Shown: positions 7,243-46,203 of the stretch, piece after piece | Layout: each line of letters starts with the position of its first letter | Numbering within the stretch: position 1 is the stretch's first letter | Source: Saprospiraceae bacterium | Lineage (GTDB): Bacteria > Bacteroidota > Bacteroidia > Chitinophagales > Saprospiraceae | DNA length: 64,000 bases | Assembly: GCA_016715245.1 (NCBI GenBank) | Contig: JADKAS010000006.1 | Location: 20,870-84,869, forward strand | Reading direction: 5' to 3' | Notes under the pieces: model-generated | Databases searched by the model: none | What the model was told of the DNA's origin: nothing | Seen by the model: only the letters and a program-made list of their open reading frames with translations | Program-made: the position numbers and the translations under genes

Positions 7243-10200
7243 ATGAAAGATCTCATGATTCCCCCAACTTCACGTTATTACATATCGTTTACTAAATGTG
7301 TATTAATGTTAACCTTATTGTCATTTCTGCCTATATCTCAAACAGAAGGACAAAACTGGACCCCAGTGGAAAGTTCAGAAATCACCATCCAAACAGGAAG
7401 TATAGACATTGTACCAAACAAGTTTCAACTTTACAGAGTTAATGATGCAGAAATAAAAGCTATTCTGGATGATGCACCTACCGAAGAAGAAAAAGTCGAT
7501 GGAGATATGTCCATGGGAAAAAATGTAATCATAAAACTTGGGTTACCTGACGGAGAATCAGAAGAATTTATGATTTATGAATATAAAATGATGGAATCCG
7601 GCCTAGCTTCACAATTTCCTGATTTTAAAACTTATTATGGAAATTCCATTTCAAATCCTTTACATCATGTAAGAATTGACTACACAACTCATGGTTTAAG
7701 AGCTATGATTTTATCTCCTGACGGAAGTATTTTTATCGACCACTTCCAGCGAAATGATAAAAACCATAAAATTGTTTATTATAAAAAAGATTTCAGCAAA
7801 CCCATAACCTGGTTTTGTGGTGTAAAGGGGAACGGATTTTCGGAAAGGGATAAAAATAAAATTGATTCAAGGATCGGCGATTGTGGCATCAGACACCAAT
7901 ACCGTCTTGCCATAGCTGCTACAGGTGAATATACAACATTTCACGGAGGTACAGTGGCTTTAGCCATGGCTGCCATTATGACTACCATGAACAGGGTAAA
8001 CGGTGTGTTTGAAAAGGATTGTGCGGTTAGAATGATATTGGTGGCTAATAACAGTTCAATAGTGTATACAAACCCGGCTACAGACCCATATACGAATGGA
8101 GATCCTGATATGATGATAAATCAAAATCAGGCAAACATTGATGCAGTTATTGGAAATGCCAATTACGATATAGGACACGTTTTCGGAACCAATTCGGGTG
8201 GTTTAGCCGGTTTGGGTGTGACATGTGCCGCAGGTGCCAAAGCACTTGGTGTGACAGGTAGTAGCGCACCGATAGGAGACCCATTTGATATTGACTACGT
8301 CGCTCATGAAATAGGACATCAGTTTAACGCCAATCACACACAATATAATGATTGCAACAGAAATAACCCGACTTCCGTTGAACCGGGTAGTGCTTCCACA
8401 ATTATGGGTTACGCAGGTATTTGTCCTCCTGATGTTCAAAGCAACAGCAATGATTATTTCAGTACAGCCAGTTTATATGAAATACGGCCTTTTGTGGTAA
8501 GTAATACCTGTGATGTAGAAGTTGTGGTTACAAATTCAGCGCCTTCTGTTACAGCATTGAGTAATTATTCAATACCAACTTCTACACCATTTGTACTTAC
8601 AGCTTCAGCCAGTGATCCTAATGGTATGTTGACTTATTGTTGGGAACAGATTGATATATTTACAGGTACTCTGAGGACTATGCCTCCGGCTGCTACAAAT
8701 GTGGACGGTCCTATGTTCAGGTCTTTAACTCCTATAGTGAGTCCATTGAGGTATTTCCCCAATTTACCGGACGTTTTAAATAATGTAAATCCAACATGGG
8801 AAGAATTGCCATCTGTTGGAAGGCCTATGAATTTCAGAGTCACCGTAAGAGATAATTTTGCAACTGCAGGTTGTACTGGTGAAGCACAAAATATAGTTAC
8901 TACAGTGGCTGGAACCGGACCTTTTTTGGTTACTTCCCCTAATACTGCAGTTACGTATACAGGAAATTCGTCACAAACTATTACCTGGAATGTGGCCGGC
9001 ACAACAGCAGCACCCGTTAGTTGTGCTAATGTAAATATACTTTTAACCACCGATGGAGGCACAACTTTCACTTCACTGGCGTCTAATACGGCAAATGATG
9101 GTTCTGAAAGTATAACCATTCCAAATATCACTACATCTACTGCAAGAGTCTGGATACAATGTGCCAATAACATATTTTATGATGTTTCTAATGTTAATTT
9201 TACTATTCAGGCAGCTTTACCCCCTTGTGCTGATCTGGTTTTTCCAAGTTGTACGACCGCTGTCAACATTGATTTTGCCGGTTTTGGAGGAGCAGGTTTT
9301 TCTCCTATGCCCAATGCCAATCAACTTTGCTCCAACCACTGGGCATGGACAGGCTGGAGTAATGGTAATTTAGCTTTCGGGGGTACACAAACCACGGCCA
9401 ACACAGATTACACCAGAGGAAATACGCCTGGTGGTGTAACAACAGGCGGTATTTACTCTTTAAATAACGGCGCTTTATATATACAGCCAGGAGGAAGTGA
9501 TTGGGCACCCGGTACAGCAACACTGAGGATTCAAAATACTTCGGGTTCCAACATGACGGATATGATGGTTGGCTATGACCTGCTGGTAAGAAATGATCAG
9601 GCGAGAAGTAATAGTTTTAATTTTTCTTACTCACTGGATGACATAACATATACTCCGGTTGCATCTCTGGATTTTACATCAACTGCAGCAGCAGATGCAA
9701 TGCCAACAATTGTTACTGTTCCAAGGTCAACAACATTAACCGGACTTACCCTTGCCAACAATGCATACATTTATTTCAGATGGTCAGGTGCCGATGTCGG
9801 AGGAAGTGGTTCAAGAGACGAGTTTGGTTTGGACAATCTTTCATTTACACCTGCTTGTAATAATTGCCCCAGCTTTACAAATTTTACGCCTAATAATGTT
9901 ACCGTTGTAAACAGCACATGTTCAGCACCGACTTGTATGCTTATGGGAGGTATAATAAATGCGGCAGTAAATAATTGCCCTTCAGGATCAACATTACAGT
10001 ATTCGACCGACGCCGGAATGACCTGGAGTACAACGGTTCCTGTATATGATCAGGATGGTCCTTCACAAACTGTAATCACCAGATGTAACTGTGATTTGAA
10101 CAATGCTATAAGCAGTAGTCCTAGCAATCCTGTATCCACAAGTCCGGGCACTTGTCCTCCATCATGTAACTGTACATTAAATGGTATGGTTTCTAATGTA

Positions 10201-13200
10201 GCATGTAATAATAGTGAAACAACCAATACTGCAGATGATTTTATCACTTTTGATTTAATTGTGACAGGTGGCGGCGGCAACAGTTCTATGAGTATTACTA
10301 CAACTCCGGGTACCCCTACCCCAAATTCAGCTCTTGCTTATAATGTAACTCATTCCATCACTATGCAGCCTGGTTCTGCGGGAGGTGGAAATATAATATT
10401 GTTGGCAACAGATGATAACAACAGTGATTGTTACACAACCATGATCACAGATCCGGGTACCTGTTCAAACATCGATTTCACTGTCAGTATTTCTGACCCG
10501 TGCGTTTGTAATAATGATGCCACACCAGCTCAGAATGACGGTACTTTTGATGAACAGATAACAGTTTTAGGCCCTGCTGGAGAAACCATTACAGGTACTT
10601 GTACAGGTTGTTCGCCCACTGCTTTGACATTTACTGAAACTTCACCGGGTGTATATGAGAGTAATATATTCACACATATTGATAATTTGGGTTACAATGT
10701 TAGCATAACTGCTGGTAATTCTCAGTTAAATATCGGCAATAAATGCGCTTACCCAAATGTTGCCATAGACCCTATAGGCCCTCTTTGTAATAATGGAAAT
10801 CCTGTTGCTTTGACAGCAGTGATAACCGGAGATGACGGAAGTGGAGGATATACCTGGTCTGGAACAGGTGTCAGTGGAAGTTCATTTGATCCTTTCAATC
10901 TGGCAGCAAACAATTACACCATTACCTTAAATTATGACGGCGTTGACCTAGGAAATGTGTCTCCTGACGGAGGTATAACACCGGCTTTTCCGGGATGTAT
11001 TCAGGTTGCCACAGGTTCAGTGACAGTATTGGATTCTGTTGCCATAACTCAGCCACCTAATCAAACTTTATGTGCGAATACATCAACAAACCCGGTTAAT
11101 TTTATGTCTGCTCCTTCCAATGTAAAATATAGTTGGACGAATGACAATACAGCCATTGGACTCGCAGCAAGCGGGATGGGCAATATCCCATCGTTTATAG
11201 CTACTAATCCCGGAAGCACACCCATTACGGCTAATATTACGGTAACGGCAATGGTGATGGACACTTTTAACTTTACCGGACAAGTTCAACAATATATTGT
11301 TCCTCCAGGTGTCACCTCTATCGAAATTGAGACCTGGGGAGCCCAAGGCGCCAATGGCACCGTTGGTAATGCACCCGGCAATGGTGGATTAGGAGGCTAT
11401 TCAAAAGGCACATTGGCCGTTACACCGGGAGAGACCCTATACCTTAATGTCGGTGGACAAAATGGGTTTAATGGAGGTGGTCCTGCCGGCATCCATATTG
11501 GAACAGGAGCACAAACTTTTCCCGGAAATGGTGGAGGTGGTTCAGACATTCGTCAAGGTGGAGCTGCTTTGGCAAATAGAGTTCTAGTCGCCGCAGGTGG
11601 TGGTGGTGGTGGTGCCGCAAATAATAATAGTTGTACAAGTAATGCACAAAGAAACGGAGCAGTCGGAGGTGGACTTACAGGAGCTGATGGTGCTGGCAGC
11701 GCAAATGAGTGTACTCTTCCAGCAGCAGGTGGAGGAATGGGAGCCAATCAGGTTAATGGTGGAATTGGAGGAACTTTTACCTTTAACTGTAATAACAATA
11801 CACTGCCAGGTTTTGCAGGACTTTTAGGCCAGGGGGGTGCAGGCGGTAACGGAGGAAATAACGGCTGTTTTCCCAACTCGCAAGGTGGTCCCGGCGGCGG
11901 TGGCGGCGGTGGTTATTTCGGCGGCGGCGGCGGCGGTGCAGGTTTTGGCGGCGGCGGTGGTAGTGGATCCGGCGGCGGCGGCGGCGGTGGATCATCTTAC
12001 ATTGGTGGGGTTACCAACGGCATGACTACTTCCGGAATCAAATCCGGAAATGGAAGAATTGTTATTAATCCGGGATTGTACGCAGATTGTATGCCTTCAC
12101 CAAAAACATTTACTATTACCGTAAATCCTTTGCCTGATCCTCCTGTTATTCCTAATATCACCGTTTGTCAGGGTGGTAGTACTTTGATTGTAGCTGGTAC
12201 CATCACAACACCAACAGGTCCACCGGTGTCCGTAACCTATAATTTTGAAGGGGACAATCCGGCCTCAACCACGACTAATAATATGTTTGCAACAGGAAAT
12301 AATGCCGTTATAGGTACAGGTGTCTCCACTTTGACATTCCCTCAAGGATGCGGTTCACTGGATGCGATGTCAGCAAACAACTGGTCTCAACCTACTGAAG
12401 TTGCCGCGGTGGCTAACAATGACTATTTTGAATTTGTGGTCAACAACACTTCAGCAGTAAACACCCTGGTGATTAATGGGTTTTCATTTTCTGGAAGAAT
12501 TTCAACAACCGGGCCAACCAATTGGGCATTGTACCAAGGTACTACAGCTATAGGATTTTTTGGCACTACGACATCGGCGTCAACCCCTACTCCATGTGGT
12601 AATTATACTACAAATACATTAAACTTAGTCGTCGCTCCAGCTTCAAATGCAATAATAAGAATTTATGCCTGGGGTAATACACCAGCACAGAGTACAGGAA
12701 CGTTCAGAATTGACGATGTAGTGGTTTCCGGTACTTCCAACCCTCCTTCCAACAATTTCAAATTTTATAATGTAGACCCAACCGGAGGTATGGCCACCCC
12801 AATATTTACTGGATCTCAATATGACCCAATGACTACTCCGGCTACCTCACCTCAATCCATTTGGGTTACAGAATGTTCTGCAGCCGGATGTGAAAGTCTG
12901 CCTACACGGGTGATTGTAACTGTATCCGCAAATCCAACCATAACCATACCTACCATCAACCCCTTATGCGCACCCAATTTTTTCAATATAAACAACTTCA
13001 ATTTTAATCCAAATCCACCAGGAGGAACTTTTTCATACCATAATACACTTTCAGATGCCCAAATGGATATCAACCCAATTACAAGCGGGTTAAATAACAT
13101 AAATACAACAAGGACAATTTATGTAAGATATGAACTGGCAAACAATTGTTTTACTGTGGGTACACTGCAATTTATTGTGCATCCCATGCCTCCACCACCT

Positions 13201-16200
13201 GTTGTTCCAGCCACGGTAAGTACATGCGCAGGAGAAAGCCCACTGATAAAAGTTAATATAGATAATTACCCTGTTGAATATTTATGGAATTTTGAGGGCA
13301 ACATAACTGGAAATGGTATTTCTTCCCAACCTACCATTGCAGGAAATGGTCCGGTGCAAAGTGCCGGTGCTGGTCTGAATAGTGTTGGTTTTCAAGTAGC
13401 CGGATCCGGTTGTGGTGATGCCATAACTTCTGCAGGTTATGAAGCGGGAAATATCACCCTTGCTGCAGCCGTGGCATCTCAGGAGTATTTTGAATTCTGT
13501 GTAGGCTCAGCTTTGCCAGGTATTATATATGCAGGAGTAAATGGTATTACCATCAGGCATAGAGCTTCCGGCACAGGACCTATAAACTGGGCAGTGGTTG
13601 CCTCCAACAATCTAACGACGCCTCTGGCTTCCGGTATAGTAGGTACTGGTTGTACACTTCATACAGGAGCTTTTGCTTTAAATACGGCTACTTGTTACAG
13701 AGTGTATTACTGGGGAGCAACCAGCTTAAGTGGCACCCTGAGAATCGACGAATTCAGAGTCGCTGCTAATTACCAAAATAACGCCACTTACCGGTTTTAT
13801 ACCGTTAATCCAACAACAAATCCAAATGCGACACCAGTGTTTACAGGTGTTTGCTATCAAACAAACCTGACCGTTCAAAATGGTCCAACCACCTATTGGG
13901 TTACATGTCAGAATCCGGTTACAGGTTGTGTGAGTAATCCGTCAAATGTCATAGCGCAGGTATTTCCTGACCCTGTCGTAACTGTTTTTAATTCATGCGC
14001 TGGTGGAAGTACCGTTACATTTCAGGTATCCGGCGCTACAAGTGGCACATGGGGTGTTTCCGGAGGTGGTACGATCAACCCCACCACAGGTGTGTTTACA
14101 CCCACCACAGCTGGATGTTTTACAGCCACATACTTAGCCCCGGGAAATTGTGATGATACCAAAAGTTTTGTAGTCTTTCCTTCTGCCCCTGCGGCGCCAA
14201 TGATAAGCAACACTTGTAACACATCATTCGTAGTTCCTGTGCTTCAACCCTTTGGAGGATTTACTGCACAGTATAGCTTTAATGGTGGAAATACCTGGGG
14301 TACTTCCAATACTTCACCAACAACACCTGGTTGTTATCAGGTAGTTACAAGATATATTTTAACCAATACCTGCGGAACAACTTTAGCAGGGTCTGTTGGT
14401 CCGGCTGCTTGTCAACAAAGCGGTATCAGAGAAGTTGTTATATTTCCTGCAGCTCCACCGGCACCGGTTATTTCAAATACATGTAATACTGCCATTACCA
14501 TACCTGTTTTAACAGCTGTTACCGGATTCAGACCGGAATATAGTTTTGACGGAGGTATGACATGGTCAACCAACAATGTATCTTCCACGACCCCAGGATG
14601 TTATGCGACAAGAAGCAGGTATGTACTCGCAGCAGCATGTGGAACTCCTTATCCGGTAGGAACTACGGCGCCTCCGGCTTGTCTGCAAAGTCCTGTTACC
14701 AATGCCGTTATTTATCCGGCAGCCCCGGTTATTACAATGCCTCCGGCAACTTGTATGACAAACTTTGTATTGCCAACAGTGACTCCGGTGCCTAACTTTA
14801 CCATAGAATACAGCATTAATGGAAGTTCGTTTACTTCAACCCCAATGAGTACTATGGCTCCGGGCTGTTATACCATTATAACAAGATATGTATTAACCAC
14901 TACATGCGGAGCAACACTAGCAGGATCACCAGGGCCTGTGGCTTGTGCGCAAAGCAATACAGTGATTGCCAATGTTTTACCTATACCAGATGTTTTGGAT
15001 CAACCGGACATACTCGTGTGTAATCTTGAACTTATAAGCCCTCTACCTTTTATAAGTACTGTAGCAGTACCGACCTGTCTGGGAACGAGTATAGAATATT
15101 TTTGGACAAATAGTAATCCTGATATTGGATTACCTGCTTCCGGCATGGGTAATATTCCACCTTTTACGGCTCAAAACCCAGGTTTAGCAATTATAACCGT
15201 CACACCAAGGATTACCTTAAATGGAGTTATCTGTGAAGGTACATCCATTTCATTCAATATTGTTGTTCATCAGCCTATCGCTTTGGCGTGTAATAACGGA
15301 CTCAACATTAGTGTTGACAGAAATTGTGGTATCAAGGCCTTTGTAGACATGTTTTTAGAAGGAACTTACAATGACTATTTTTATAGTGTTCGGTTTTTTG
15401 CTTACACTGGCGTTGAAATTGATATTAACGACATACATTTATTTTTGGGTACACGACTTCAATATGAGATAATTGACAATTGTAATGGAAACAGATGTTG
15501 GGGATATGTAACTTTTGAAGACAAATACCCACCGGTTATAATTTGCCCGGATTTCGAAGTAAATTGTATAGAGGAACCAAATCTTTACCTTCCAATCAAT
15601 TCACCTGATTTTATTGGTTATCCTGAAATTCAGGACAACTGTAGTGGAGCAGAAGAAAACCTTAACATGTCTTATCTGGAAACAGGAAATACTTGTAATA
15701 AGGTAATTATCAGAAGATGGCAGACTTCTGACCAAAGTGGCAACCTCTCTAATGAGTGTTTACAAACGATTAGGGTGAGGCCATTATCATTTTCGGAAAT
15801 ATTTATTCCAAATCCATTGGTTTTTCTTGAGTGTAAAACAGCTACAGACCCTGCATCTATCGTTGCTGCAACAGGTGATGTAAGAGACGGATATGCATTT
15901 GTATTGATTGACGGAGAGCCTCTTCCTTTGACAGGTCAGGTTTGTAACATCGTTGGATCTTATACTGACTTACCAATTGAAGCATGTGGACCTCACTGCC
16001 ACGGTAATATAAAAGTAATCAGAACATGGCAATTTATTGACTGGTGTCAGGGAATCGTGTCTCAGCCGGTTACTCAGTTGATCAAATCTGCTGACCTTGA
16101 GGCTCCAACTTTCATTCTGAAAGATACCATCGTAAGTACTTCACCTTGGTATTGTGCTGCTGATTTTGATCTTCCAAGACCTTGGGAACTTCATGACAAT

Positions 16201-19200
16201 TGTGATATCAACCCTACATATTATGTAAGTGGTCCTGGTATTGTTACGATCACAGGAAATCAAGTTGACGGATACAGAGCAAAAGGTGCTCCTAAAGGAC
16301 AACATATTTTCTGTTATACAGCTGAAGACTGTTGTGGTAATATTTCTACTCAGTGTATGATTGTTACCGTAGTTGACAAAACACCTCCGGTACCTTCCAC
16401 CAAACAAAATATCGTTCTTGGTTTAGTATCAGGTGGACCTGGTCAGGATGAAGGCAATGCTAAATTGTTTACTCACCACGTGGACAACTATTCTTATGAT
16501 ATGTGTTCAGCGGTAAGACTTGAAATCAGAAGACCTGCAGGTGCGCCTCAGTGTAACAATGATGGTAGAATTGACCCTGTTACAGGAAAGCCTTACAACA
16601 ACAACGTAACTTTCAACGACAACAAACCTAGATTACATCAGGATGACAACATTGATGATACAGATAATGGAGAGTTTGTTAAATTCTGTTGTGAGGATTT
16701 AAAAACAGGTGTTGACATCGACGGTGACGGCGAAGTTAATATCGGATACCATGAAGTTATTTTGAGAGTATGGGATGATGGAGATATGAATGCTCAATGG
16801 GGAAGTGCAGGTGACAACTACAACGAAAGCTGGGCTTACGTTAAAGTTGAAGACAAAGCTCCACCGGTAATTCAGTGTCCACCAAACATGACTATTCACT
16901 GTGACTGGGCTATTACGTACAGTTCTGACTTAGGTAGTGGTGCACAATCTACAGAAGGCGTTGACTTTACAAAAACAGGTCTACCTGTTGCATACGGAAC
17001 TTGTGGTCCACGTCCAATCACATTCAGAGACAATACAGGTCAGTTGAACCAGTGTAAATTAGGAAACGTAACAAGAGATTTCTTTGTAACGCCTGCAAAA
17101 GCTGGAGTAGATCCACCTTCTTGCAGACAAGTCATCACTATTTTACCAAGTACTTCTACGCAACCATGGATAGTCACTCCACCGAGTGCAGCTCCTGTGG
17201 CTATTACATGCGCTGACCCTACTGCTACAGAGATCAAAGACAACGGGCCTAAGTGGGTCAACGGACCTTGTGATGTCATCGGAGAAAACATCAAAGTTCA
17301 CAAATTTTTATTTGAAGATGGTGTTTGTATAAAATGGAGAGTTGAGTATAACTATATTAATTGGTGTTATCCTGAAGGTCATCCTGACCATGCTAGAGGA
17401 CCATACTTCAAAGACTTTATGTTCTTCGACAATAATAAGCCTGTAATCGATAATTGTGATCCTTTAATGTTTGGTGTAGATGCCAACTGCGAACACAGAT
17501 TGGTATTGACTAACAAAGCCACAGACACAGGTGGATGTAATGGTGATAACGGATGGTTGAAATGGCAGGTATTCATCGACTTATGGGCTGATGGATCAGA
17601 TGACTGGGAATTCTCAAGTTTCTTACCTGTAGGCAACGACGAGGCCAATGCAGCTAACGGAAACCTTGCTGCTATCAGAGATGATAACAATAACGGAATT
17701 CCTGATATCTATGTAGCTCCAACGGCCGAAAATGGCATTATTACGATTACCGTTCCTGAAATCATTGTTGGCAAAATGAGTAACCACAAAGTAAGCTGGA
17801 AAGTAACAGACGGATGTCACAACCACACTACTTGTCACCAACCAGTAATGGTAGTGGACAAAAAACCACCTACCCCTTACTGTCTGAGCTTAAGCACAGC
17901 ATTGATGGCTGATCCTGACGGAACAGGACCATTGAGACCAATGGTAGAATTGTGGGCTATTGACTTCAACGTAGGATCATTTGACAACTGTACACCACAG
18001 GAAGACTTGTTGTTTACATTCAATAACTGGGCACCTCAGGTTACAGATACTATTATCGATGGAAGAACAGTAAATATTGACGTTCCTCACTATTTTGATG
18101 TAAATGGTGCAGTATGGCCATATCCTACTACTAATGCAGATGTATTGTCAAGATATAATAGAGGTGATTTACAATTGTGGTTACCTAATCTTAGAAGTTC
18201 TGCAAGAGTTTGGACTGAGTCTGTCATGGCAGGAGAAAGAAAAATAGAACTTCCCGTAATGATGAGCGTATGGGATAAAAAATTCGAAGTTGATTTCTGT
18301 ATGGTTAATTTGACAATCATTTGTAATACATGTCCAATTGAAGGCAGTTCCAGAATTAGTGGTACCGTCACTACCGAGGAAGGTAAAGGAGTGGCTAATG
18401 TTGAAATAAGATTGACAACAACCGGAAATCCTTCCAACACCTCAGAAATGACCGATGTAAATGGTTATTATTCTATTCAGAATATTCAGGCTTCCTCAGG
18501 ATTACTTTATCCTTATAAGAATACAGAACATGGAAACGGAGTCAGCACCCTGGATCTTGTGCTCATTCAAAGGCATATATTGGGCATTCAGAAATTTGAA
18601 AGTCCTTATAAAATTATGGCAGCAGATGTCAATAATGATACTAAAATCAATACCGTTGATTTGGTAGAACTCAGAAAAGTTATTTTGGGCGCTTCACCTG
18701 TTTTCACCAATAAGAGCTGGAGATTTGTAGATGCCAAGGTTACCATGGATATGAATAGCGTCTTTCCTTTCTATGAGACGGTGAATGTCAATATCAACAC
18801 GGCAACGATGGACAATATGAATTATATGGCTGTTAAGATAGGTGATGTAAACGGAAGTGCATCTACAGATGTAATCAATGCACAGTCAGAAACCAGAACA
18901 GCTTCAAGACTTGATTTGACAGCAGCTGAAAGAAGCGTAGAAGCCGGTGAAACATTTGAAATAGCAGTTACGGCAGCTAACTTTAATGAAATCTTCGGAT
19001 TCCAGTATACAATGAACCTACACGGAGCGAACTTCGTAGATGTAGTTTCTGGTGCTATTGAAGTAACTGAATCAAATGTTGGCGTAATCTCAAGTGATGT
19101 AATCACGATGAGTTATGCAGCAAGAGAAGCAGTTTCTCTAAGAGCTGATGAGGTATTGTTCACCATCGTATTGAAAGCTGACAAAGCTGGTCAATTTAGT

Positions 19201-19569
19201 GACATGATCCAACTTAACTCTAATGTAACAAGAGCTGAGTCTTATGTTGGTTCTACTATCAAAGTTCAGAATATCGGATTGACAGTAGGTTCTGTTGATG
19301 CAGCAGCTCAGATTGAGTTGTTCCAAAACGAACCAAACCCATTCAAAGCAACAACAAATGTAAACTTCTTCATGCCTGAAGCAGACAATGCAAGATTGAC
19401 TGTTTACGATGTAACTGGTCGAGTAATCAACGTAAGAAACATCAATGCAGTACAAGGTTTGAATACAGAAGCATACACAAGAGAGCAATTGGGTACTTCC
19501 GGTATGTTGTATTACAAATTAGAAAGTGGTGATTTCACTGCTACTAAGAAAATGATCATCATCGAATAA
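7243..19569 (+). CDS. giant (4108 aa) T9SS-secreted multidomain protein with N-terminal metzincin/reprolysin-like zinc protease
   Basis: Single uninterrupted ORF. Order of parts: signal peptide; HEIGHQFNANH zinc site; glycine-rich domain; Ig-like/PKD-like and HYR-like repeats; carboxypeptidase-regulatory-like domain; dockerin-like and cohesin-like modules; C-terminal LFQNEPNPFKATTNVNFFMP...LTVYDVTGRVI...KKMIIIE (T9SS type-A CTD pattern). Confidence 0.9.
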   Translation: MKDLMIPPTSRYYISFTKCVLMLTLLSFLPISQTEGQNWTPVESSEITIQTGSIDIVPNKFQLYRVNDAEIKAILDDAPTEEEKVDGDMSMGKNVIIKLGLPDGESEEFMIYEYKMMESGLASQFPDFKTYYGNSISNPLHHVRIDYTTHGLRAMILSPDGSIFIDHFQRNDKNHKIVYYKKDFSKPITWFCGVKGNGFSERDKNKIDSRIGDCGIRHQYRLAIAATGEYTTFHGGTVALAMAAIMTTMNRVNGVFEKDCAVRMILVANNSSIVYTNPATDPYTNGDPDMMINQNQANIDAVIGNANYDIGHVFGTNSGGLAGLGVTCAAGAKALGVTGSSAPIGDPFDIDYVAHEIGHQFNANHTQYNDCNRNNPTSVEPGSASTIMGYAGICPPDVQSNSNDYFSTASLYEIRPFVVSNTCDVEVVVTNSAPSVTALSNYSIPTSTPFVLTASASDPNGMLTYCWEQIDIFTGTLRTMPPAATNVDGPMFRSLTPIVSPLRYFPNLPDVLNNVNPTWEELPSVGRPMNFRVTVRDNFATAGCTGEAQNIVTTVAGTGPFLVTSPNTAVTYTGNSSQTITWNVAGTTAAPVSCANVNILLTTDGGTTFTSLASNTANDGSESITIPNITTSTARVWIQCANNIFYDVSNVNFTIQAALPPCADLVFPSCTTAVNIDFAGFGGAGFSPMPNANQLCSNHWAWTGWSNGNLAFGGTQTTANTDYTRGNTPGGVTTGGIYSLNNGALYIQPGGSDWAPGTATLRIQNTSGSNMTDMMVGYDLLVRNDQARSNSFNFSYSLDDITYTPVASLDFTSTAAADAMPTIVTVPRSTTLTGLTLANNAYIYFRWSGADVGGSGSRDEFGLDNLSFTPACNNCPSFTNFTPNNVTVVNSTCSAPTCMLMGGIINAAVNNCPSGSTLQYSTDAGMTWSTTVPVYDQDGPSQTVITRCNCDLNNAISSSPSNPVSTSPGTCPPSCNCTLNGMVSNVACNNSETTNTADDFITFDLIVTGGGGNSSMSITTTPGTPTPNSALAYNVTHSITMQPGSAGGGNIILLATDDNNSDCYTTMITDPGTCSNIDFTVSISDPCVCNNDATPAQNDGTFDEQITVLGPAGETITGTCTGCSPTALTFTETSPGVYESNIFTHIDNLGYNVSITAGNSQLNIGNKCAYPNVAIDPIGPLCNNGNPVALTAVITGDDGSGGYTWSGTGVSGSSFDPFNLAANNYTITLNYDGVDLGNVSPDGGITPAFPGCIQVATGSVTVLDSVAITQPPNQTLCANTSTNPVNFMSAPSNVKYSWTNDNTAIGLAASGMGNIPSFIATNPGSTPITANITVTAMVMDTFNFTGQVQQYIVPPGVTSIEIETWGAQGANGTVGNAPGNGGLGGYSKGTLAVTPGETLYLNVGGQNGFNGGGPAGIHIGTGAQTFPGNGGGGSDIRQGGAALANRVLVAAGGGGGGAANNNSCTSNAQRNGAVGGGLTGADGAGSANECTLPAAGGGMGANQVNGGIGGTFTFNCNNNTLPGFAGLLGQGGAGGNGGNNGCFPNSQGGPGGGGGGGYFGGGGGGAGFGGGGGSGSGGGGGGGSSYIGGVTNGMTTSGIKSGNGRIVINPGLYADCMPSPKTFTITVNPLPDPPVIPNITVCQGGSTLIVAGTITTPTGPPVSVTYNFEGDNPASTTTNNMFATGNNAVIGTGVSTLTFPQGCGSLDAMSANNWSQPTEVAAVANNDYFEFVVNNTSAVNTLVINGFSFSGRISTTGPTNWALYQGTTAIGFFGTTTSASTPTPCGNYTTNTLNLVVAPASNAIIRIYAWGNTPAQSTGTFRIDDVVVSGTSNPPSNNFKFYNVDPTGGMATPIFTGSQYDPMTTPATSPQSIWVTECSAAGCESLPTRVIVTVSANPTITIPTINPLCAPNFFNINNFNFNPNPPGGTFSYHNTLSDAQMDINPITSGLNNINTTRTIYVRYELANNCFTVGTLQFIVHPMPPPPVVPATVSTCAGESPLIKVNIDNYPVEYLWNFEGNITGNGISSQPTIAGNGPVQSAGAGLNSVGFQVAGSGCGDAITSAGYEAGNITLAAAVASQEYFEFCVGSALPGIIYAGVNGITIRHRASGTGPINWAVVASNNLTTPLASGIVGTGCTLHTGAFALNTATCYRVYYWGATSLSGTLRIDEFRVAANYQNNATYRFYTVNPTTNPNATPVFTGVCYQTNLTVQNGPTTYWVTCQNPVTGCVSNPSNVIAQVFPDPVVTVFNSCAGGSTVTFQVSGATSGTWGVSGGGTINPTTGVFTPTTAGCFTATYLAPGNCDDTKSFVVFPSAPAAPMISNTCNTSFVVPVLQPFGGFTAQYSFNGGNTWGTSNTSPTTPGCYQVVTRYILTNTCGTTLAGSVGPAACQQSGIREVVIFPAAPPAPVISNTCNTAITIPVLTAVTGFRPEYSFDGGMTWSTNNVSSTTPGCYATRSRYVLAAACGTPYPVGTTAPPACLQSPVTNAVIYPAAPVITMPPATCMTNFVLPTVTPVPNFTIEYSINGSSFTSTPMSTMAPGCYTIITRYVLTTTCGATLAGSPGPVACAQSNTVIANVLPIPDVLDQPDILVCNLELISPLPFISTVAVPTCLGTSIEYFWTNSNPDIGLPASGMGNIPPFTAQNPGLAIITVTPRITLNGVICEGTSISFNIVVHQPIALACNNGLNISVDRNCGIKAFVDMFLEGTYNDYFYSVRFFAYTGVEIDINDIHLFLGTRLQYEIIDNCNGNRCWGYVTFEDKYPPVIICPDFEVNCIEEPNLYLPINSPDFIGYPEIQDNCSGAEENLNMSYLETGNTCNKVIIRRWQTSDQSGNLSNECLQTIRVRPLSFSEIFIPNPLVFLECKTATDPASIVAATGDVRDGYAFVLIDGEPLPLTGQVCNIVGSYTDLPIEACGPHCHGNIKVIRTWQFIDWCQGIVSQPVTQLIKSADLEAPTFILKDTIVSTSPWYCAADFDLPRPWELHDNCDINPTYYVSGPGIVTITGNQVDGYRAKGAPKGQHIFCYTAEDCCGNISTQCMIVTVVDKTPPVPSTKQNIVLGLVSGGPGQDEGNAKLFTHHVDNYSYDMCSAVRLEIRRPAGAPQCNNDGRIDPVTGKPYNNNVTFNDNKPRLHQDDNIDDTDNGEFVKFCCEDLKTGVDIDGDGEVNIGYHEVILRVWDDGDMNAQWGSAGDNYNESWAYVKVEDKAPPVIQCPPNMTIHCDWAITYSSDLGSGAQSTEGVDFTKTGLPVAYGTCGPRPITFRDNTGQLNQCKLGNVTRDFFVTPAKAGVDPPSCRQVITILPSTSTQPWIVTPPSAAPVAITCADPTATEIKDNGPKWVNGPCDVIGENIKVHKFLFEDGVCIKWRVEYNYINWCYPEGHPDHARGPYFKDFMFFDNNKPVIDNCDPLMFGVDANCEHRLVLTNKATDTGGCNGDNGWLKWQVFIDLWADGSDDWEFSSFLPVGNDEANAANGNLAAIRDDNNNGIPDIYVAPTAENGIITITVPEIIVGKMSNHKVSWKVTDGCHNHTTCHQPVMVVDKKPPTPYCLSLSTALMADPDGTGPLRPMVELWAIDFNVGSFDNCTPQEDLLFTFNNWAPQVTDTIIDGRTVNIDVPHYFDVNGAVWPYPTTNADVLSRYNRGDLQLWLPNLRSSARVWTESVMAGERKIELPVMMSVWDKKFEVDFCMVNLTIICNTCPIEGSSRISGTVTTEEGKGVANVEIRLTTTGNPSNTSEMTDVNGYYSIQNIQASSGLLYPYKNTEHGNGVSTLDLVLIQRHILGIQKFESPYKIMAADVNNDTKINTVDLVELRKVILGASPVFTNKSWRFVDAKVTMDMNSVFPFYETVNVNINTATMDNMNYMAVKIGDVNGSASTDVINAQSETRTASRLDLTAAERSVEAGETFEIAVTAANFNEIFGFQYTMNLHGANFVDVVSGAIEVTESNVGVISSDVITMSYAAREAVSLRADEVLFTIVLKADKAGQFSDMIQLNSNVTRAESYVGSTIKVQNIGLTVGSVDAAAQIELFQNEPNPFKATTNVNFFMPEADNARLTVYDVTGRVINVRNINAVQGLNTEAYTREQLGTSGMLYYKLESGDFTATKKMIIIE
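8305..8337 (+). other. zinc-binding motif HEIGHQFNANH of the metzincin-like catalytic domain
   Basis: cat gaa ata gga cat cag ttt aac gcc aat cac, in frame with ATG 7243. HExxHxxxxxH spacing as in metzincins, with N where G is usual. GSASTIMGYAG follows about 20 residues later as a Met-turn candidate. Confidence 0.75.
11263..12075 (+). other. glycine-rich domain (resembles the bacterial/ALK-type Gly_rich family)
   Basis: TFNFTGQVQQYIVPPGVTSIEIETWGAQGANG...GGLGGYSKGTLAVTPGETLYLNVGGQNGFNGGG...GNGGGGSDIRQGG...RVLVAAGGGGGGAANN...GGGGGGGYFGGGGGGAGFGGGGGSGSGGGGGGGSSYIGG...SGNGRIVINPG. Confidence 0.6.
11884..11990 (+). repeat. GGC/GGT codon low-complexity tract (poly-Gly coding); (GGT)6 also at 11596-11613
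   Basis: ggtggtcccggcggcggtggcggcggtggt...ggcggcggcggcggcggtgca...ggcggcggcggtggtagtggatccggcggcggcggcggcggtgg. Includes a pure (GGC)5 at 11971-11985. Confidence 0.9.
14170..14970 (+). repeat. three tandem ~89-aa Cys-containing repeats (period 267-270 nt) inside giant gene 1
   Basis: FPSAPAAPMISNTCNTSFVVPVL...YSFNGGNTWGTSN..TTPGCYQVVTRYILTNTCGTTLAG..GPAACQQS; then FPAAPPAPVISNTCNTAITIPVL...YSFDGGMTWSTNN..TTPGCYATRSRYVLAAACGT...PPACLQS; then YPAAPVITMPPATCMTNFVLPTV...YSINGSSFTSTP...APGCYTIITRYVLTTTCGATLAG..GPVACAQS. Confidence 0.85.
18535..18690 (+). other. dockerin-like module
   Basis: NGVSTLDLVLIQRHILGIQKFESPYKIMAADVNNDTKINTVDLVELRKVILG. The second half fits the dockerin Ca-loop/helix pattern DVNxDxKINxxDLxxLxKxILG. 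Confidence 0.6.
18898..19300 (+). other. cohesin-like module
   Basis: TASRLDLTAAERSVEAGETFEIAVTAANFNEIFGFQYTMNLHGANFVDVVSGAIEVTESNVGVISSDVITMSYAA...VLFTIVLKADKAG. The pattern of a strand, then G-FQ-Y/F, then a strand resembles cohesin domains often found just before T9SS CTDs. Confidence 0.5.
19309..19566 (+). other. T9SS type-A C-terminal sorting domain
   Basis: QIELFQNEPNPFKATTNVNFFMPEADNARLTVYDVTGRVINVRNINAVQGLNTEAYTREQLGTSGMLYYKLESGDFTATKKMIIIE. Confidence 0.8.
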
Positions 19570-19918: not shown

Positions 19919-22900
19919 ATGAGCGTAAAACCTAATTCCCCAAAATTTAGCTTTTTAGTAATAAGCTTTTTTCTTTTTTGTTGCAGTAGTTTATTTGCAC
20001 AGTTCACTTCGAAATCAGAATTGGCAAGACAAATTTTAATATCCAGGGCAGATGAGTTTAATCTGGATATAACCTCCCTTAATCAAATGCGTCTTTCCTC
20101 AGAAACGTACAGTAGATTAAGTAAATTGAATCATGTTTATTTTGAACAGCATATTGAAGAAATTCCGGTTTATAATGCCATTCTCAATGCGCATATCACT
20201 TCAAATGATGAGTTGCTCACAATAGGCAACAGGTTTTATTCCAATGCTTTAACAAATAAATCCCTGGGGTTGCCTCTCATTCCTCAACTTGAAGCTATAT
20301 CAAGAGTTTGTAATCATTTGGGATATTCATTTAATGGCAACCTTACCATAGTACAAAACATCGGAGGTCCAACTAAAAAGATTGTGTTTGACAAAGGAAA
20401 TATATCTCTTGAAAACATTCCTGTCAATCTGGTCTGGCAACCAATTTCTGAAAATTATCTGGTTTTAGCATGGAATGTCTCTATTTATGAAGCAAGTGCT
20501 CAAAACTGGTGGAATGTCAGAATTGATGCCGTTACAGGTGAAATACTTGACCAAAATAATTGGGTGGTTCAATGTAATTTTGACATGGATTGTGGTACAG
20601 ATCACAAATCTCTTGAAAACAAGAATACTAAGCATCATTTCATTCCAAAATCTGTTCAAAACCACAATACCCAGGATATTATTGTGATCCAGGGTACAGT
20701 TGTAGTGAGCCCCATGGATGGCAGTTCCTATCGGGTTTATCCGGAACCTATAGAAAGCCCCAACCATACCTTACCACTTCCCCCGGTAGATGGAAGAACT
20801 ACAGTTAATGAACCGGCTGATGCTACAGCTTCGCCATTCGGCTGGCATGATACCAACGGAGCTATAGGTGCAGAATTTACTACTACCCAGGGAAATAATG
20901 TACACGCGTATACTGACACCAATTTTGACAATATGCCAGATCCGGGATCCAGCCCCGATGGTGGAAGTGGACTTGACTTTCTTTTTCCTTTAGACCTTAC
21001 CATGGCCCCAAGTACTTATAGACCTGCTGCAGTTACCAATTTATTTTACTGGAATAATTTTATCCATGATTTTGCCTACGCTTTTGGATTTGATGAGGTC
21101 AGTGGTAATTTTCAGCAAAACAATTATGGAAACGGTGGATTAGGCGCAGATTATGTGCTGGCTGAAGCTCAGGATGGTTCCGGAACCAATAATGCAAATT
21201 TTGCTACTCCGCCGGATGGAAACAGGCCTCGTATGCAAATGTTCATTGGAACAAATCCGACACCGGATGTTGATGGTGATTTTGACAATGGCGTAATAGC
21301 CCATGAATACGCCCACGGTATTTCCAACAGATTTACTGGTGGTCCAGCCAATACTAGTTGCCTTGGAAATCAGGAACAAATGGGAGAAGGATGGAGTGAC
21401 TTTTATGCATTAATTACGACAATAGAACCCGGAGACTTAGGTACTGATTCAAGAGGTATAGGAACGTATTTATTTGGTCAGCCGCCAAATGGTCCTGGTA
21501 TCAGACCAACCCCTATTCTACCAATATGGCTATTAACACAGCAACTTATGACAATATAAAAACACTATCTATACCACATGGTGTAGGTTACGTCTGGTGC
21601 GGTATGATTTGGGATTTATTATGGAAAATGGTTGATGTTCATGGAAATCCGGCTGGTATTAACATTGCTATAAACCTTGTAAATGAAGGGATGAGATTAC
21701 AACCGTGCAGTCCTGGCTTTGTTGACGGAAGAAACGCCATTTTAGCTGCTGACGTTGCTATGTACGGAGGTGCTAACCGTTGTTACATTTGGGAGGTTTT
21801 TGCAAGAAGAGGGCTTGGTTTCAGTGCCAATCAGGGACTTTCAACAAGCAGAAGTGATGGAACCCAAGCTTTTGACCTACCACCATTTTGTATTTTTGAT
21901 GTAACCCCTGAAGTTGTTTCCATTTGCAAACCAAATAGTGCTCAATATACTGTATCTAATGGAACAGCTGAAACATTAACTTTATCTGCAACAGGAAACC
22001 CACCAGGCACAGTTGTATCGTTTCTTACTAACCCTGTCCCAACTAACGGGACCAGTATAATGACAATTGGAAATACAGCAGCCGCAGCCAATGGAACCTA
22101 TATAATAACTGTGACAGGAACTGGTATTTCAAATACTGTTACTGCAATGGTAACCTTAATTATCCAAAGTAATGTTCCTGGTGCACCAACATTGGTCACA
22201 CCTCTTAATATGGCTATGAATCAAATCAATCCTTTGTTGACATGGAGCCCTCAACCAGAATCAGAAACTTATAGCATTGAGGTAGCTACCGATCTGGGAT
22301 TTTCCAATATTATTGCAAGTGCAACGGGTTTAACGGTAAATATATTCCAGACAAATAATTTAATGTCAAATACTACATATTACTGGCGTGTGCGGGGTGT
22401 AAATGGATGCGGAACCGGTTCATATTCACCTATATTTTCATTTACAACAGCAAACATTGCCTGTATTACAATTGCCAGCACTGATGTACCTAAAACAATT
22501 GCGCCCGATCCCCCAAGTACAACATTATCAATATTGACATTCCCTAATGTTTGTGGAATTATTACAGATGTAAATTTACGAAATCTTAATATTACGCATT
22601 CATTTGTTGGTGATCTGAATATCGAATTAATCAGTCCTATGGGCACTGTTGTCCGGGTTTTCCAACAAGCTTGTGGTGGTTCAGATAATATCTTAATTAA
22701 TTATGACGACGAAGCAGCTTCGCCAACGATTCCTTGTCCACCAACAAACAATGGATTTTACATTCCATTTGCTGCTTTATCAGCTTTCGACGGGCAATCG
22801 CCTTCGGGAGTCTGGACTTTGCGTATTCTTGATGAAGCTCCTTTAGATGGTGGAACTTTAAATGCCTGGAGCCTGGAACTGTGTTATGCAAATACATTTA

Positions 22901-25900
22901 CTCCAGCTCCTATTGTTGTTACAGATAATTCCGGTAATACAGCAAATGATGGTATTTTGTGTCAGGGAGGAACAGCCACACTTACTGCTTCCGGAGGCAC
23001 TTCATACCTATGGAGCACAAATGAAACTACACCAGCGATTTCTGTCAACACCTCAGGCATGTATTCAGTTACAATAACAAGCGGAAGCTGTTCAGGTAGT
23101 GTATCAACCACCATAGTTGTCAATCCGAATCCAACGATTTCGGGACCGACATCAGTCGCTGTGGGGGCAAGTATAAATATTATGGGATCGGGTACCCCAG
23201 CCATGACAAATCCTTATATCTCATCCAACACTTTAATTGCTACAGTAAATAATGTGGGTTTAGTAACAGGCATAGCCCCAGGAATGACAGTAATTACATA
23301 TACAGATATTAATGGTTGTACTTCAACAAGAACAATAACAGTTTCTGCAATTACAACCTCACTTCCACCAAACGGAACTGCAAATGTTGCATGTCCGGCA
23401 TTGGCAATAGCTCCAACTCCACCAATAAATATTACGCCAATAAATCAAACTTGTCCTTTGGTACAACCTGTAGGCCCTACCATCACAAACAACCCTAATC
23501 CAATTAGTTGTGAAGGCACAAGGGAGTATGCTTATACTTACACCGATTGTGCAAATAATTTTATAGGAACATGGACGTTTACTTACACAATTGAGCGCCA
23601 ACCATTTACTTTACCAGCCAATGGCGCTGCAACTGTGGCTTGTCCTGCCCTGGCAGTTGCTCCTACTCTACCGACTGTTACAAGTAATTGTGGTGAAGTG
23701 TTAACTCCGGCTGCTCCTGTAGTTACGAATGTCCCAAATCCTTTGACTTGTGAAGGAACCAGAACCTATGCTTATACTTACACAGACTGTGAAGGCAATA
23801 CGGCTGTATGGAGTTTCGTTTATACTGTCGAAAGATCACCTTTCACAGTACCTGCAAATGGTAATGCAACAGTGGCATGTCCGGCTTTAGCAGTGACTCC
23901 TACTCCACCGGCAGTTTCAAGCAATTGTGGTGAGGTTATCACACCTACCGGCCCGGTAATTACCAATACTCCTAACCCTTTGACTTGTGAAGGAACCAGA
24001 ACCTATGCTTATACTTACACAGACTGTGAAGGCAACTTTTCTGTCTGGAGTTTTGTATATACCATAGAACGAAATCCATTTACAGTACCTGCAAACGGAA
24101 CTGCAACTGTTGCCTGTCCTGCTTTGGCAGTTGCTCCAACCCCACCAGTAGTTTTGAGTAATTGTGGAGAGACTTTGACGCCAACAAGTCCGGTAATTAC
24201 GAATGTTCCAAACCCAATCACTTGTGAAGGAACCAGAACCTATGCTTATACTTACACAGACTGTGAAGGCAAACTGCTGTACTGGAAGTTTCGTTTATAC
24301 TGTCGAAAGATTACCTTTCACTGTACCTGTAAAATGGTAATGCATCAGTGGCATGTCCGGCTTTAGCAGTGACTCCTACTCCACCGGCAGTTACAAGCAA
24401 TTGTGGTGAGGTTTTAATACCAACAGGCCCGGTAATTACCAATACTCCCAACCCTCTGACTTGTGAAGGCACAATCACCTATTCATATACATTTACGGAT
24501 TGTGAAGGTAATACTGCTGCCTGGAATTTTATTTATACGGTGGAAAGATTACCTTTTACTGTTCCCGCAAATGGAGCATCAATTATTTGCGGACTCGCGC
24601 AGGCAACTCAACCGGTTCCTCCTGTAATTACCAGTAATTGTGGTGAGATTCTAACTCCATCTGGACCAGTTAGAACTGATGTAATAAACAATGGTGGAGG
24701 AACCCGTACGTATACCTGGAACTACACTGACTGCGAAGGCAACACAGCTGGATGGAATTATGTATATACTATAAACCCGATTCCTGTTATTACCCTTCAG
24801 CCTGAAGACCAATCAATATGTATTGGTAGCGACGCCACATTTGTGGTATCTGCAACCGCTCCAGCACCGGCTACGCTTGGTTACCAATGGCAAAGATTTT
24901 CAGGTGGAGTTTGGAATGACATCCCTGGTGAAACAAATGCAACCCTGATTATCACAAATGTTGCAGCTGTGGATAATGAATCTTTATTCAGATGCATAGT
25001 GAGTAGTATAAACCTTAATGGTGTCAACTGCCCGGTAATATCTGATGAAGCGGTACTTTTTGTTCATATCCCGGTTGCACTCGCCTGTAATGACCATGTA
25101 CGCATCAGTGTAGATCAGGAATGTTCAATAAAATCTTATGTTGATATGTTTTTAGAAGGAACATATAATTTTAACTTTTACAGCGTTACCTTTAAAACAG
25201 ATGGTGGTGTCGAAATCGACATAAACGACATTCATTTATTTTTGAATCAAAGATTGAGACACGAAATTATTGATATATGCAATGGTAATAGATGCTGGGG
25301 TTATGTAACTTTCGAGGACAAATACCCGCCTGTTTTAAGTTGTCCTGATGTTACCATTTCATGTTTGGAGCAGGATCGATTATTCCTTCCTATTGACAAC
25401 CCTGATTTTATTGGCTTACCTGAATTGTCAGAAAATTGTGGAGATGCTTTGGAAAATCTCCATTACAACTATCTGGAAACAGGAAATACTTGTAATAAGG
25501 TAATTATCAGAAGGTGGCAGACGTCTGACCAAAGTGGCAACCTCTCCAATGAGTGTGTTCAAACTGTCACCGTTAATCCTCTTTCTTTCTCTGATGTATT
25601 CGTTCCAAATCCATTGGTTTTTCTTGAGTGTAAAACAGCTACAGACCCTGCATCTATCGTTGCTGCAACGGGTGATGTAAGAGACGGATATGCATTTGTA
25701 TTGATTGACGGAGAGCCTCTTCCTTTGACAGGTCAGGTTTGTAATATCGTTGGATCTTATACTGACTTACCAATTGAAGCATGTGGACCTCACTGTCATG
25801 GTAATATCAAAGTAATCAGAACATGGCAATTTATTGACTGGTGTCTGGGAATCGTTTCCGCTCCGGTTACTCAGTTGATCAAGTCTGCTGACCTTGAGGC

Positions 25901-42501: not shown

Positions 42502-42764
42502 GAACAAAAATTTAATATTCAAATTTTGCGTCTACATTTTCTCATTTTTTTTTTATTTTGTTTTAAGGTTAGCCAGTTGAAACAAATTATAATAATTTGT
42601 TATTTCTAATTTATTATATGTCAATTAAATATAAATAACAAATAGTATATATGACCGTCATTTTCATTTTTAACAAAGAATTGGTATAGCTTTTGCAATG
42701 ACTTAAAATATTGAATAAACATTAGTTACAAATTATAAAAATTGTTAATATTTAAATTTTGGAG

Positions 42765-46195: not shown

Positions 46196-46203
46196 TATTT
46201 TTG
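46196..46203 (+). promoter_or_regulatory. Bacteroidota -7 box (TATTTTTG)
   Basis: Exact TAnnTTTG match 19 nt upstream of ATG 46222. Confidence 0.35.

Follow-up and report, generated by a model that had tools for sequence, protein, structure and literature searches.

The 64,000-nucleotide window that we analysed (contig JADKAS010000006.1, positions 20,870 to 84,869, of a Saprospiraceae bacterium) carries two giant genes whose products end in the same compound unit, in which a dockerin is predicted to sit within a beta-sandwich and to be followed, on the same chain, by a divergent cohesin and the C-terminal sorting domain (CTD) of the type IX secretion system (T9SS). Cohesin-dockerin pairing is a high-affinity protein glue that has been studied almost only in Firmicute cellulosomes. 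We favour, with about even confidence, the reading that this unit, hereafter the cassette, is a base module conserved in a class of T9SS cargo that is specific to Saprospiraceae, in which dockerin and cohesin would clasp each other in cis by default and lone copies of either module would dock in trans. The source genome, which belongs to the family Saprospiraceae, comprises 4.3 Mb in 36 contigs and is 100% complete. A first-pass annotation of the same DNA had noticed dockerin-like and cohesin-like modules in both giants and a dockerin-like module on a redoxin, and had proposed a surface assembly system; as a whole, this interpretation is partly supported.

Giant gene 1 (7243-19569, forward strand) encodes 4108 amino acids (aa) according to the list of open reading frames (ORFs), its translation and Pfam. 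The translated N-terminus is hydrophobic, and Pfam orders the product into an M12B reprolysin-like head, a Gly-rich domain, a Cys-rich stalk, the base module and the CTD; there are 117 Cys in total and none in the last 360 residues. The segment at 18535-19300, which the first-pass annotation had singled out, corresponds to residues 3765-4020. The tail, all on the forward strand, is predicted to consist of the five-stranded N-half of a CarboxypepD_reg-like sandwich (18346-18537, aa 3702-3765; PF13620, profile match, AlphaFold2 (AF2) and coevolution), the inserted dockerin with three helices (18538-18690, aa 3766-3816; PF00404, profile matches to the PDB and AF2), the C-half of the sandwich with the conserved motifs KSWRF and AVKIGDVNGS (18691-18858, aa 3817-3872; predicted local distance difference test (pLDDT) of AF2 and coevolution), the divergent cohesin as a nine-strand jelly roll (18907-19290, aa 3889-4016; phmmer, profiles, AF2 and Foldseek) and the type A CTD (19333-19560, aa 4031-4106). 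The CTD scored 28.6 bits against PF18962 (cut-off 27) and 36 bits against TIGR04183 (cut-off 23); the latter score was the same on both giants, and the match stops 2 residues short of the C-terminus. With a terminal CTD above cut-off and a hydrophobic N-terminus, both giants appear, as far as their sequences tell, to be T9SS type A cargo.

The segment before the CTD of both giants, described earlier as dockerin-like, scored above the Pfam gathering cut-off of Dockerin_1 (PF00404, 22.9 bits; the cut-offs of Cohesin, PF00963, and of PF13620 are 24.1 and 32.3 bits). The scores were 26.3 bits at residues 3767-3814 of gene 1, with 35.6 bits (E 1e-8) for the excised segment, and 26.2 bits at residues 1334-1384 of the last ORF of gene 2 (24348-29384), and the dockerin profile matched dockerins in the PDB at E 1e-7 to 1e-9. 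The second calcium loop, DVNNDTKINTVD (D-V-N-N-D-T-K-I-N-T-V-D), is canonical, with D37, N39 and D48 near-invariant, and the first is degenerate, retaining only positions 3, 7, 9 and 12. AF2 placed helices at model residues 68-78, 87-93 and 103-113. The helices of both EF-hand-like repeats were predicted, and in the cassette alignment they retain the twofold motif [ST]xDLVx[IL][QR][KR]xILG.

A cohesin-like module had been reported about 70 residues after the dockerin; its start lies about 75 residues after it. Profile and fold comparisons agree with its being a cohesin, but the supposed gap appears to be the C-half of the sandwich and not a linker. PF13620 covers only its profile positions 2-47 (aa 3705-3750; 26.4 bits in the whole protein and 34.2 bits in the cut-out), and the profile of the N-half matches NOMO2 and the SdrD B domain. 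When the dockerin was excised and Pfam was re-scanned, the CarboxypepD_reg match was not extended and still covered profile positions 2-47, so the completion of the sandwich rests on the fold model and the couplings. In the longer AF2 model, five strands with pLDDT of at least 91 precede the dockerin (model residues 3-57) and three follow it. Coevolution was assessed by mean-field direct coupling analysis (DCA) on 250 and 233 non-identical cassettes (effective number of sequences, Meff, about 230), which recovered both intradomain contacts and the insertion of the dockerin. The strongest pair, Y5-F63, consists of the residues flanking the dockerin, the pairs 1-115 and 7-117 also join both flanks, and the pairs 17-165/166, 5-169 and 6-160 join the first strand of the sandwich with the last. 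Together, the model and the couplings point to a dockerin inserted between the fifth and sixth strands of a CarboxypepD_reg-like sandwich; the modelled unit would thus comprise this sandwich with its type-I-like calcium-binding dockerin, a 16-residue connector, the divergent cohesin and the type A CTD.

Sandwich, dockerin and cohesin were modelled as a single rigid unit. Model 1, built from an 80-sequence alignment without the N-half of the sandwich (268 residues), reached a mean pLDDT of 90.1 and a predicted template modelling score (pTM) of 0.86; model 2, extended 54 residues upstream to cover 18346-19311 of the window (92 sequences, 322 residues), reached 95.1 and 0.91. Values of pTM of 0.86-0.91 over 268-322 residues need confident inter-domain placement. 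Adding the N-half of the sandwich raised the region between dockerin and cohesin from pLDDT 59-87 to 91-98, and the pTM of 0.86 that model 1 attained with only half a sandwich suggests direct contact between dockerin and cohesin, not only a relay through the sandwich.

Three independent lines of evidence identify the module after the connector as a divergent cohesin, despite the absence of a Pfam Cohesin match. The equivalent module passes PF00963 in five paralogues of the same genome (25-46 bits), and the window module was matched by phmmer to the Pfam-positive paralogue cohesins at E 1e-17 to 1e-9. Family profiles were made from 12 paralogues and from 80 relatives and searched against the PDB, where they matched 3l8q at E 5e-7, NagJ (2ozn/2jh2) at E 0.005 over profile positions 129-243, nearly all of the module, and 4uyp_A at E 0.01. 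The cohesin region was modelled with pLDDT 93-98, and the first 45 Foldseek matches of the first model and the first 29 of the longer model in the PDB were all cohesins (best E 6e-7; template modelling (TM) score on target up to 0.64). The possibility that this part was only a generic Ig-like spacer, which the first-pass annotation had itself raised, was ruled out by these Foldseek and profile matches. The Pfam search that it had suggested identified PF00404 on all three proteins, but PF00963 had no match on the window copies, so that the refuting conditions it had named arose only in part.

The cohesin carries a conserved polar patch, composed of G-x-Q-x-T on strand 3, T-x-S on strand 6 and E-x-Y on strand 8. 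Among 250 sequences, Q165 is conserved in 250, Y245 in 247, G163 in 230, E243 in 224 and S201 in 219. The alternation of hydrophobic and polar residues indicates that the polar residues of the patch are probably exposed on strands 3, 6 and 8, and the mutual coupling of positions 163, 201 and 243 indicates that these strands are adjacent. In solved cohesin-dockerin complexes, strands 3, 6 and 8 belong to the binding face, the 8-3-6-5 sheet.

The number of modules in the genome, a count that the first-pass annotation had also suggested, was 24 ORFs with a dockerin and 7 with Pfam-positive cohesins; in five ORFs a Pfam-positive cohesin lies 300-400 nt downstream of the dockerin. The unit is present about 16 times in the genome: 13 ORFs carry it in full and two or three in divergent form; three are frameshifted, and type A CTD matches numbered at least 150. 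By profile search, 87 of 100 genera sampled from the family had the unit, with between 1 and more than 26 copies in each genome, compared with only 2 of 295 other Bacteroidota genomes; of the 1.84 billion cluster representatives in the public protein library, 6,589 were matched at E<=1e-30. Most full cassettes in public data (239 of 256) end 70-125 residues, with a median of 96, before the C-terminus. The heads of the cassette cargo include M12B, M36, HYR, HYR_4C, Lectin_C (C-type lectin), PKD and Ig-like domains. No glycoside hydrolase, carbohydrate-binding module (CBM) or other carbohydrate-active family was present among the passenger domains of this genome, and the interpretation as a cellulosome was rejected because the cargo lacks carbohydrate-active enzyme (CAZyme) and CBM families. 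The cargo contains 40-117 Cys per protein (2.4-3.4% vs a background of 1.25%), and the cassette itself is almost Cys-free.

All combinations of the modules were observed within the genome: dockerin with cohesin and CTD, dockerin with CTD, dockerin alone, cohesin with CTD, and three cohesins with a type-B CTD. The last of these, encoded at C3:201092-204304, combines three PF00963 cohesins (58.5 bits) with SprB repeats and a type-B sorting domain, CHU_C; a PorP/SprF gene lies directly downstream of it (region C3:201092-205290; locus L114:6105-10290). With tandem cohesins on a protein that is probably surface-anchored and encoded in the same genome, it appears scaffoldin-like, and relatives in public data have 12 and 13 tandem cohesins with type-B tails. 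The scaffold-like free cohesins retain GxQ[FY][ST] on strand 3 and TxS[WY] on strand 6. A 255-aa protein of the genome consists only of a cohesin and a type A CTD. Besides the redoxin, there is a second genuine CTD-less protein, which ends in the dockerin-bearing sandwich (892 aa, C7:214326).

The redoxin is a secreted CPPC thioredoxin-fold protein of the TlpA/ResA-like type (46222-47250, forward strand, ORF start at 46201 or 46222; Pfam and hhalign). Its signal peptide ends with LAA, directly before QNQ, and is followed by the thioredoxin fold (46285-46773), with an AhpC-TSA match of 31.6 bits (cut-off 26) and the CPPC motif, the N-half of the sandwich (46810-46974), the dockerin (46975-47124) and the C-half (47125-47247). 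The earlier description of a dockerin at its end and of a missing CTD was borne out: Dockerin_1 was matched at residues 259-305 with 36-38 bits (36.1 in the whole protein and 38.5 when excised), and neither a cohesin nor a T9SS CTD was found with Pfam and NCBIfam. With hhalign, the last 146 residues align to the stretch of the family profile that covers both sandwich halves and the dockerin between them (99.3% probability, E 2e-20); the C-terminus falls exactly at the KIGDVN motif that closes the sandwich. Because all NCBIfam equivalog cut-offs lie far above the scores of the protein, we assign it no specific orthologue.

A match spanning thioredoxin fold and dockerin was present in about 25-30 of 100 genera. 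At least five other genera have the short form (336-354 aa), which is 36-46% identical and shares the end motif and conserved dockerin helices; this recurrence of the end motif across genera suggests that the short redoxin is a stable, selected architecture and not a recent truncation. A long form of 600-635 aa in other genera adds a cohesin region and a Por_Secre_tail, and in these genera the enzyme itself appears to be direct T9SS cargo. Long-form orthologues were located at L098, L099 and L100 (relatives G002, G005 and G017).

Giant gene 2 (19919-29384, forward strand; Pfam and junction sequence) is divided into three overlapping ORFs, which together encode an FTP propeptide, an M36 fungalysin head, HYR_4C repeats and the stalk common to both giants. 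It is interrupted by two 1-nt frameshifts at A-runs, at about 21555 and about 24333, and the M36 profile is divided between the first two ORFs (positions 1-253 and 258-368). At the second junction, an extra A in a short A-run disrupts a HYR_4C repeat. The frameshifts could be either homopolymer assembly errors or the marks of a genuine pseudogene. The tail, on the same strand, contains the sandwich with its inserted dockerin (28161-28673, dockerin at 28353-28505; PF00404), the cohesin (28722-29105) and the type A CTD (29148-29375; PF18962 and TIGR04183). Sequence comparison of the two giants gave 97% identity between the cohesins, 82% between the dockerins and still lower values between the sandwich halves, and homogenisation of the tails appears to end at the dockerin-sandwich unit. 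Elsewhere in the genome, an 821-aa open frame (C7:127580-130042) repeats the final part of the giants' stalk; its tail is almost the same as that of gene 2, the last 40 residues being identical, and it would be a third member of the giant family or a piece of one.

Other observations concern the surroundings of these genes and the module in general. The gene downstream of the redoxin lies on the opposite strand and encodes a Na+/H+ antiporter; an operon link of the redoxin to cargo was considered and rejected, as its neighbours are housekeeping genes, and a scan for promoters and terminators around the gene gave nothing informative. A thioredoxin-like SPOR-domain protein (42759-43562) lies 2.6 kb upstream of it and an FG-GAP repeat protein with a type A CTD (49420-51624) 2.2 kb downstream, both without dockerin or cohesin. 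The top solved match to the redoxin dockerin was PDB 8x39_A / 8x3a_A ("Serine protease", 151-152 aa; E 4.7e-9), which outscored all cellulosomal dockerins; it was matched at residues 13-62 with the redoxin query and at residues 85-140 with the cassette profiles, and may be a non-cellulosomal dockerin-bearing domain. Interrupted cassette genes with a CTD in another frame just downstream were found at C2:353071-354989, C1:213134-214906 and C2:33448-36907. The second of these had been a candidate for a short dockerin-only protein, which was ruled out, since the CTD in the other frame 480 nt downstream marks it as a frameshifted cassette gene. Two further proteins (C1:450309-453452 and C1:454711-456228) end in another type of dockerin (repeats DLDGNGEVSSGDF) that lacks the sandwich; one of the two has a BNR_assoc_N domain, and small ORFs with a type A CTD lie just downstream.

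In the mechanism that we propose, the cargo would be exported by the T9SS and anchored through the CTD, and the dockerin helices would bind a cohesin of this family at the polar patch conserved on its 8-3-6-5 face. In cargo with both modules, an intramolecular clasp would probably be the default and provide a rigid base under the Cys-rich stalk. Lone modules could use the same interface in trans: on one side the free dockerins of the redoxin and of the 892-aa protein, on the other the free cohesins of the three-cohesin SprB/type-B-CTD protein and of the 255-aa protein. The outcome would be a non-cellulosomal system in which proteases, lectin/HYR adhesins and a thiol-disulfide oxidoreductase dock by cohesin-dockerin pairing.

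The first-pass annotation had considered that the giants could associate head-to-tail or in trans, and an open trans network, in which each dockerin plugs into the cohesin of a neighbour, as daisy chains or runaway domain swaps that join the anchored giants and any free dockerin proteins into a surface lattice, is a serious rival, although we hold it to be rather unlikely. Canonical cohesins and dockerins pair between molecules, chains in trans require no more than a single plug and a single socket on each molecule, and the existence of free dockerin proteins and of free or multi-cohesin proteins fits such a network. The near-invariance of the dockerin across paralogues would permit promiscuous pairing, and single-chain AF2 may present intermolecular coevolution as an intrachain contact, which makes cis and swapped arrangements inseparable. 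The rigid body in the single-chain models would nevertheless suit head-to-tail chains no better than an intramolecular clasp, and the fixed order and spacing in thousands of proteins, the well-modelled 16-residue connector and the pTM of 0.91 point to a defined cis geometry. A minimal protein of 433 aa, which has little beyond the cassette, also weighs against the network. We consider it improbable that the unit is purely structural, that is, a rigid spacer or a T9SS-recognition platform before the CTD with no outside partner, much like the Ig-like domain that precedes the CTD in gingipains, in which case the lone-module proteins would be decay products or bind glycan, lipopolysaccharide or calcium. 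Such a stalk would suit a unit that always adjoins the CTD and models as rigid, the several frameshift-broken cassette genes of the genome indicate that truncation products do arise, and the cohesin fold also resembles CBM2 (1exg, at Foldseek ranks 46-47). Recent decay, however, would not account for a CTD-less redoxin that stops at one and the same motif in six genera, with 36-46% identity and conserved dockerin helices; it is hard to see why arrays of 3-13 tandem cohesins would have their own type-B CTD and a PorP/SprF partner if there were no dockerins for them to bind; and the polar patch is conserved on the canonical binding face.

The redoxin could alternatively act before export, by binding the cohesins of the cargo in the periplasm and forming or reshuffling disulfides there, or by riding out through the T9SS. 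Its signal peptide and CPPC motif together with the missing CTD would fit this, as would the Cys-rich cargo (40-117 Cys) with its nearly Cys-free cassette, and the redoxin-dockerin fusion is conserved across genera. Against it, the long-form redoxins with their own cohesin region and CTD indicate that the enzyme itself is exported in other genera, no precedent for T9SS hitchhiking was found in the literature searched, and gene position provides no link between the redoxin and cargo genes. Periplasmic docking of the redoxin to Cys-rich cargo is therefore attractive but unsupported, and we regard it as quite unlikely. Its broader form, in which cassette cohesins would dock CTD-less dockerin proteins onto T9SS cargo as carrier and client, with the redoxin making or proofreading cargo disulfides and perhaps being co-exported, has similarly slim chances.

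Several points weigh against a cis clasp combined with trans docking. In the dockerin's first calcium loop, positions 1 and 5 are not occupied by the canonical Asp/Asn. PF00963 had no match on the window cohesins even at E<=10, a result that we did not count as refuting a cohesin, given the concordance of paralogues, profiles and fold. Only 10 of the 100 top DCA pairs connect dockerin and cohesin, vs about 16 expected at random. Dockerin R53 does covary with cohesin S201 (odds ratio 13.5, Fisher p 2.5e-5), and the integrity of the dockerin signature correlates with that of the cohesin patch (Spearman 0.28), but both statistics ignore shared ancestry, for which they are uncorrected. We infer the placement of the dockerin on the 8-3-6-5 face rather than reading it from contacts in the model. 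A tight clasp would also make the cassette cohesins unavailable to free dockerins. Finally, no path is known by which a redoxin without a CTD could cross the outer membrane to the surface. The surface assembly system proposed in the first-pass annotation thus gains from the presence of all module combinations, from the multi-cohesin proteins and from the conservation of the CTD-less redoxin, but not in the part that concerns the export of the redoxin.

Among the known systems closest to the unit are the type I pairs of clostridial cellulosomes (such as 1ohz, 2ccl, 2vn5, 4uyp, 4dh2 and 3ul4). As in these, the dockerin passes PF00404 and is predicted to have two helix-loop repeats with the twofold motif and [RQ][KR] at repeat positions 17-18, and the cohesin is a nine-strand jelly roll, for which type I cohesins were the best Foldseek matches (TM on target 0.5-0.64). 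In contrast to these pairs, both modules are here fixed on one chain, the dockerin is placed within a sandwich, its first calcium loop is degenerate and the cohesin has diverged beyond the reach of PF00963. The bacterium itself is a Gram-negative member of the Bacteroidota, anchoring is through T9SS CTDs instead of S-layer homology (SLH) domains or sortase, and the cargo consists of metalloprotease, lectin, HYR and PKD domains and not of CAZymes.

Modules outside plant-cell-wall degradation are also found in NagJ/NagH of C. perfringens (2ozn, 2jh2) and in Archaeoglobus fulgidus (2xdh), and the NagJ cohesin was the best sequence-profile and Foldseek match to the window cohesin. Those modules occur in few copies per genome, with no dockerin-cohesin-CTD cassette and no T9SS link, whereas here up to 26 or more copies per genome and thousands of clusters are found in one family. 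Non-cellulosomal cohesin and dockerin sometimes occur together in a single protein. Peer et al. 2009 reportedly surveyed non-cellulosomal cohesin-dockerin modules. In the X-dockerin dyads of type II/III complexes (XDoc of C. thermocellum CipA and R. flavefaciens CttA; 2b59, 4u3s), as here, an Ig-like domain stiffens the dockerin and the dyad anchors the base of a large assembly; the X module, however, is a separate domain before the dockerin, whereas the dockerin here interrupts the sandwich and the cohesin follows in the chain.

Among T9SS cargo, the type A gingipains of P. gingivalis likewise have a beta-sandwich, the penultimate Ig-like domain, before the CTD, and the type B SprB/SprF of F. 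johnsoniae resembles the three-cohesin protein with its SprB repeats, CHU_C domain and adjoining PorP/SprF gene. Unlike in gingipains and SprB cargo, the place before the CTD is taken here by a dockerin-bearing sandwich and a cohesin, protein-protein docking modules of which the literature searched gives no report for T9SS cargo. The redoxin shares the thioredoxin fold, the CxxC motif (CPPC) and the signal peptide with TlpA/ResA oxidoreductases (PF00578/PF08534; 3or5), to which it adds a C-terminal dockerin within a sandwich and, elsewhere, also a cohesin region and a T9SS CTD. Literature searches on dockerin or cohesin with Saprospiraceae, Haliscomenobacter or type IX secretion returned no description of a T9SS-linked cohesin-dockerin cassette. 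The unit is distinct from the known systems in its fixed order on the same chain, its inserted dockerin, its T9SS anchoring, its non-CAZyme cargo and its lineage-specific expansion.

A fixed cohesin-dockerin tail on about one tenth of the type A T9SS cargo of this genome, and on thousands of Saprospiraceae proteins, could have several consequences. If the modules bind as we propose, a sandwich-held dockerin that clasps the cohesin of its own chain would be a new structural solution, and the cassettes would be a source of orthogonal cohesin-dockerin pairs for protein engineering, with constructs of 50-320 residues. If the redoxin docks on cargo, type IX secretion would gain its first described case of an oxidoreductase tethered to its substrate, or of a hitchhiking route. 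Saprospiraceae are abundant protein-degrading, prey-catching filamentous bacteria of sludge, freshwater and marine habitats. If our reading is true, these bacteria would have taken a second, independent route to multi-protein surface machines, composed of proteases, adhesins and a redox enzyme and tied to Gram-negative secretion.

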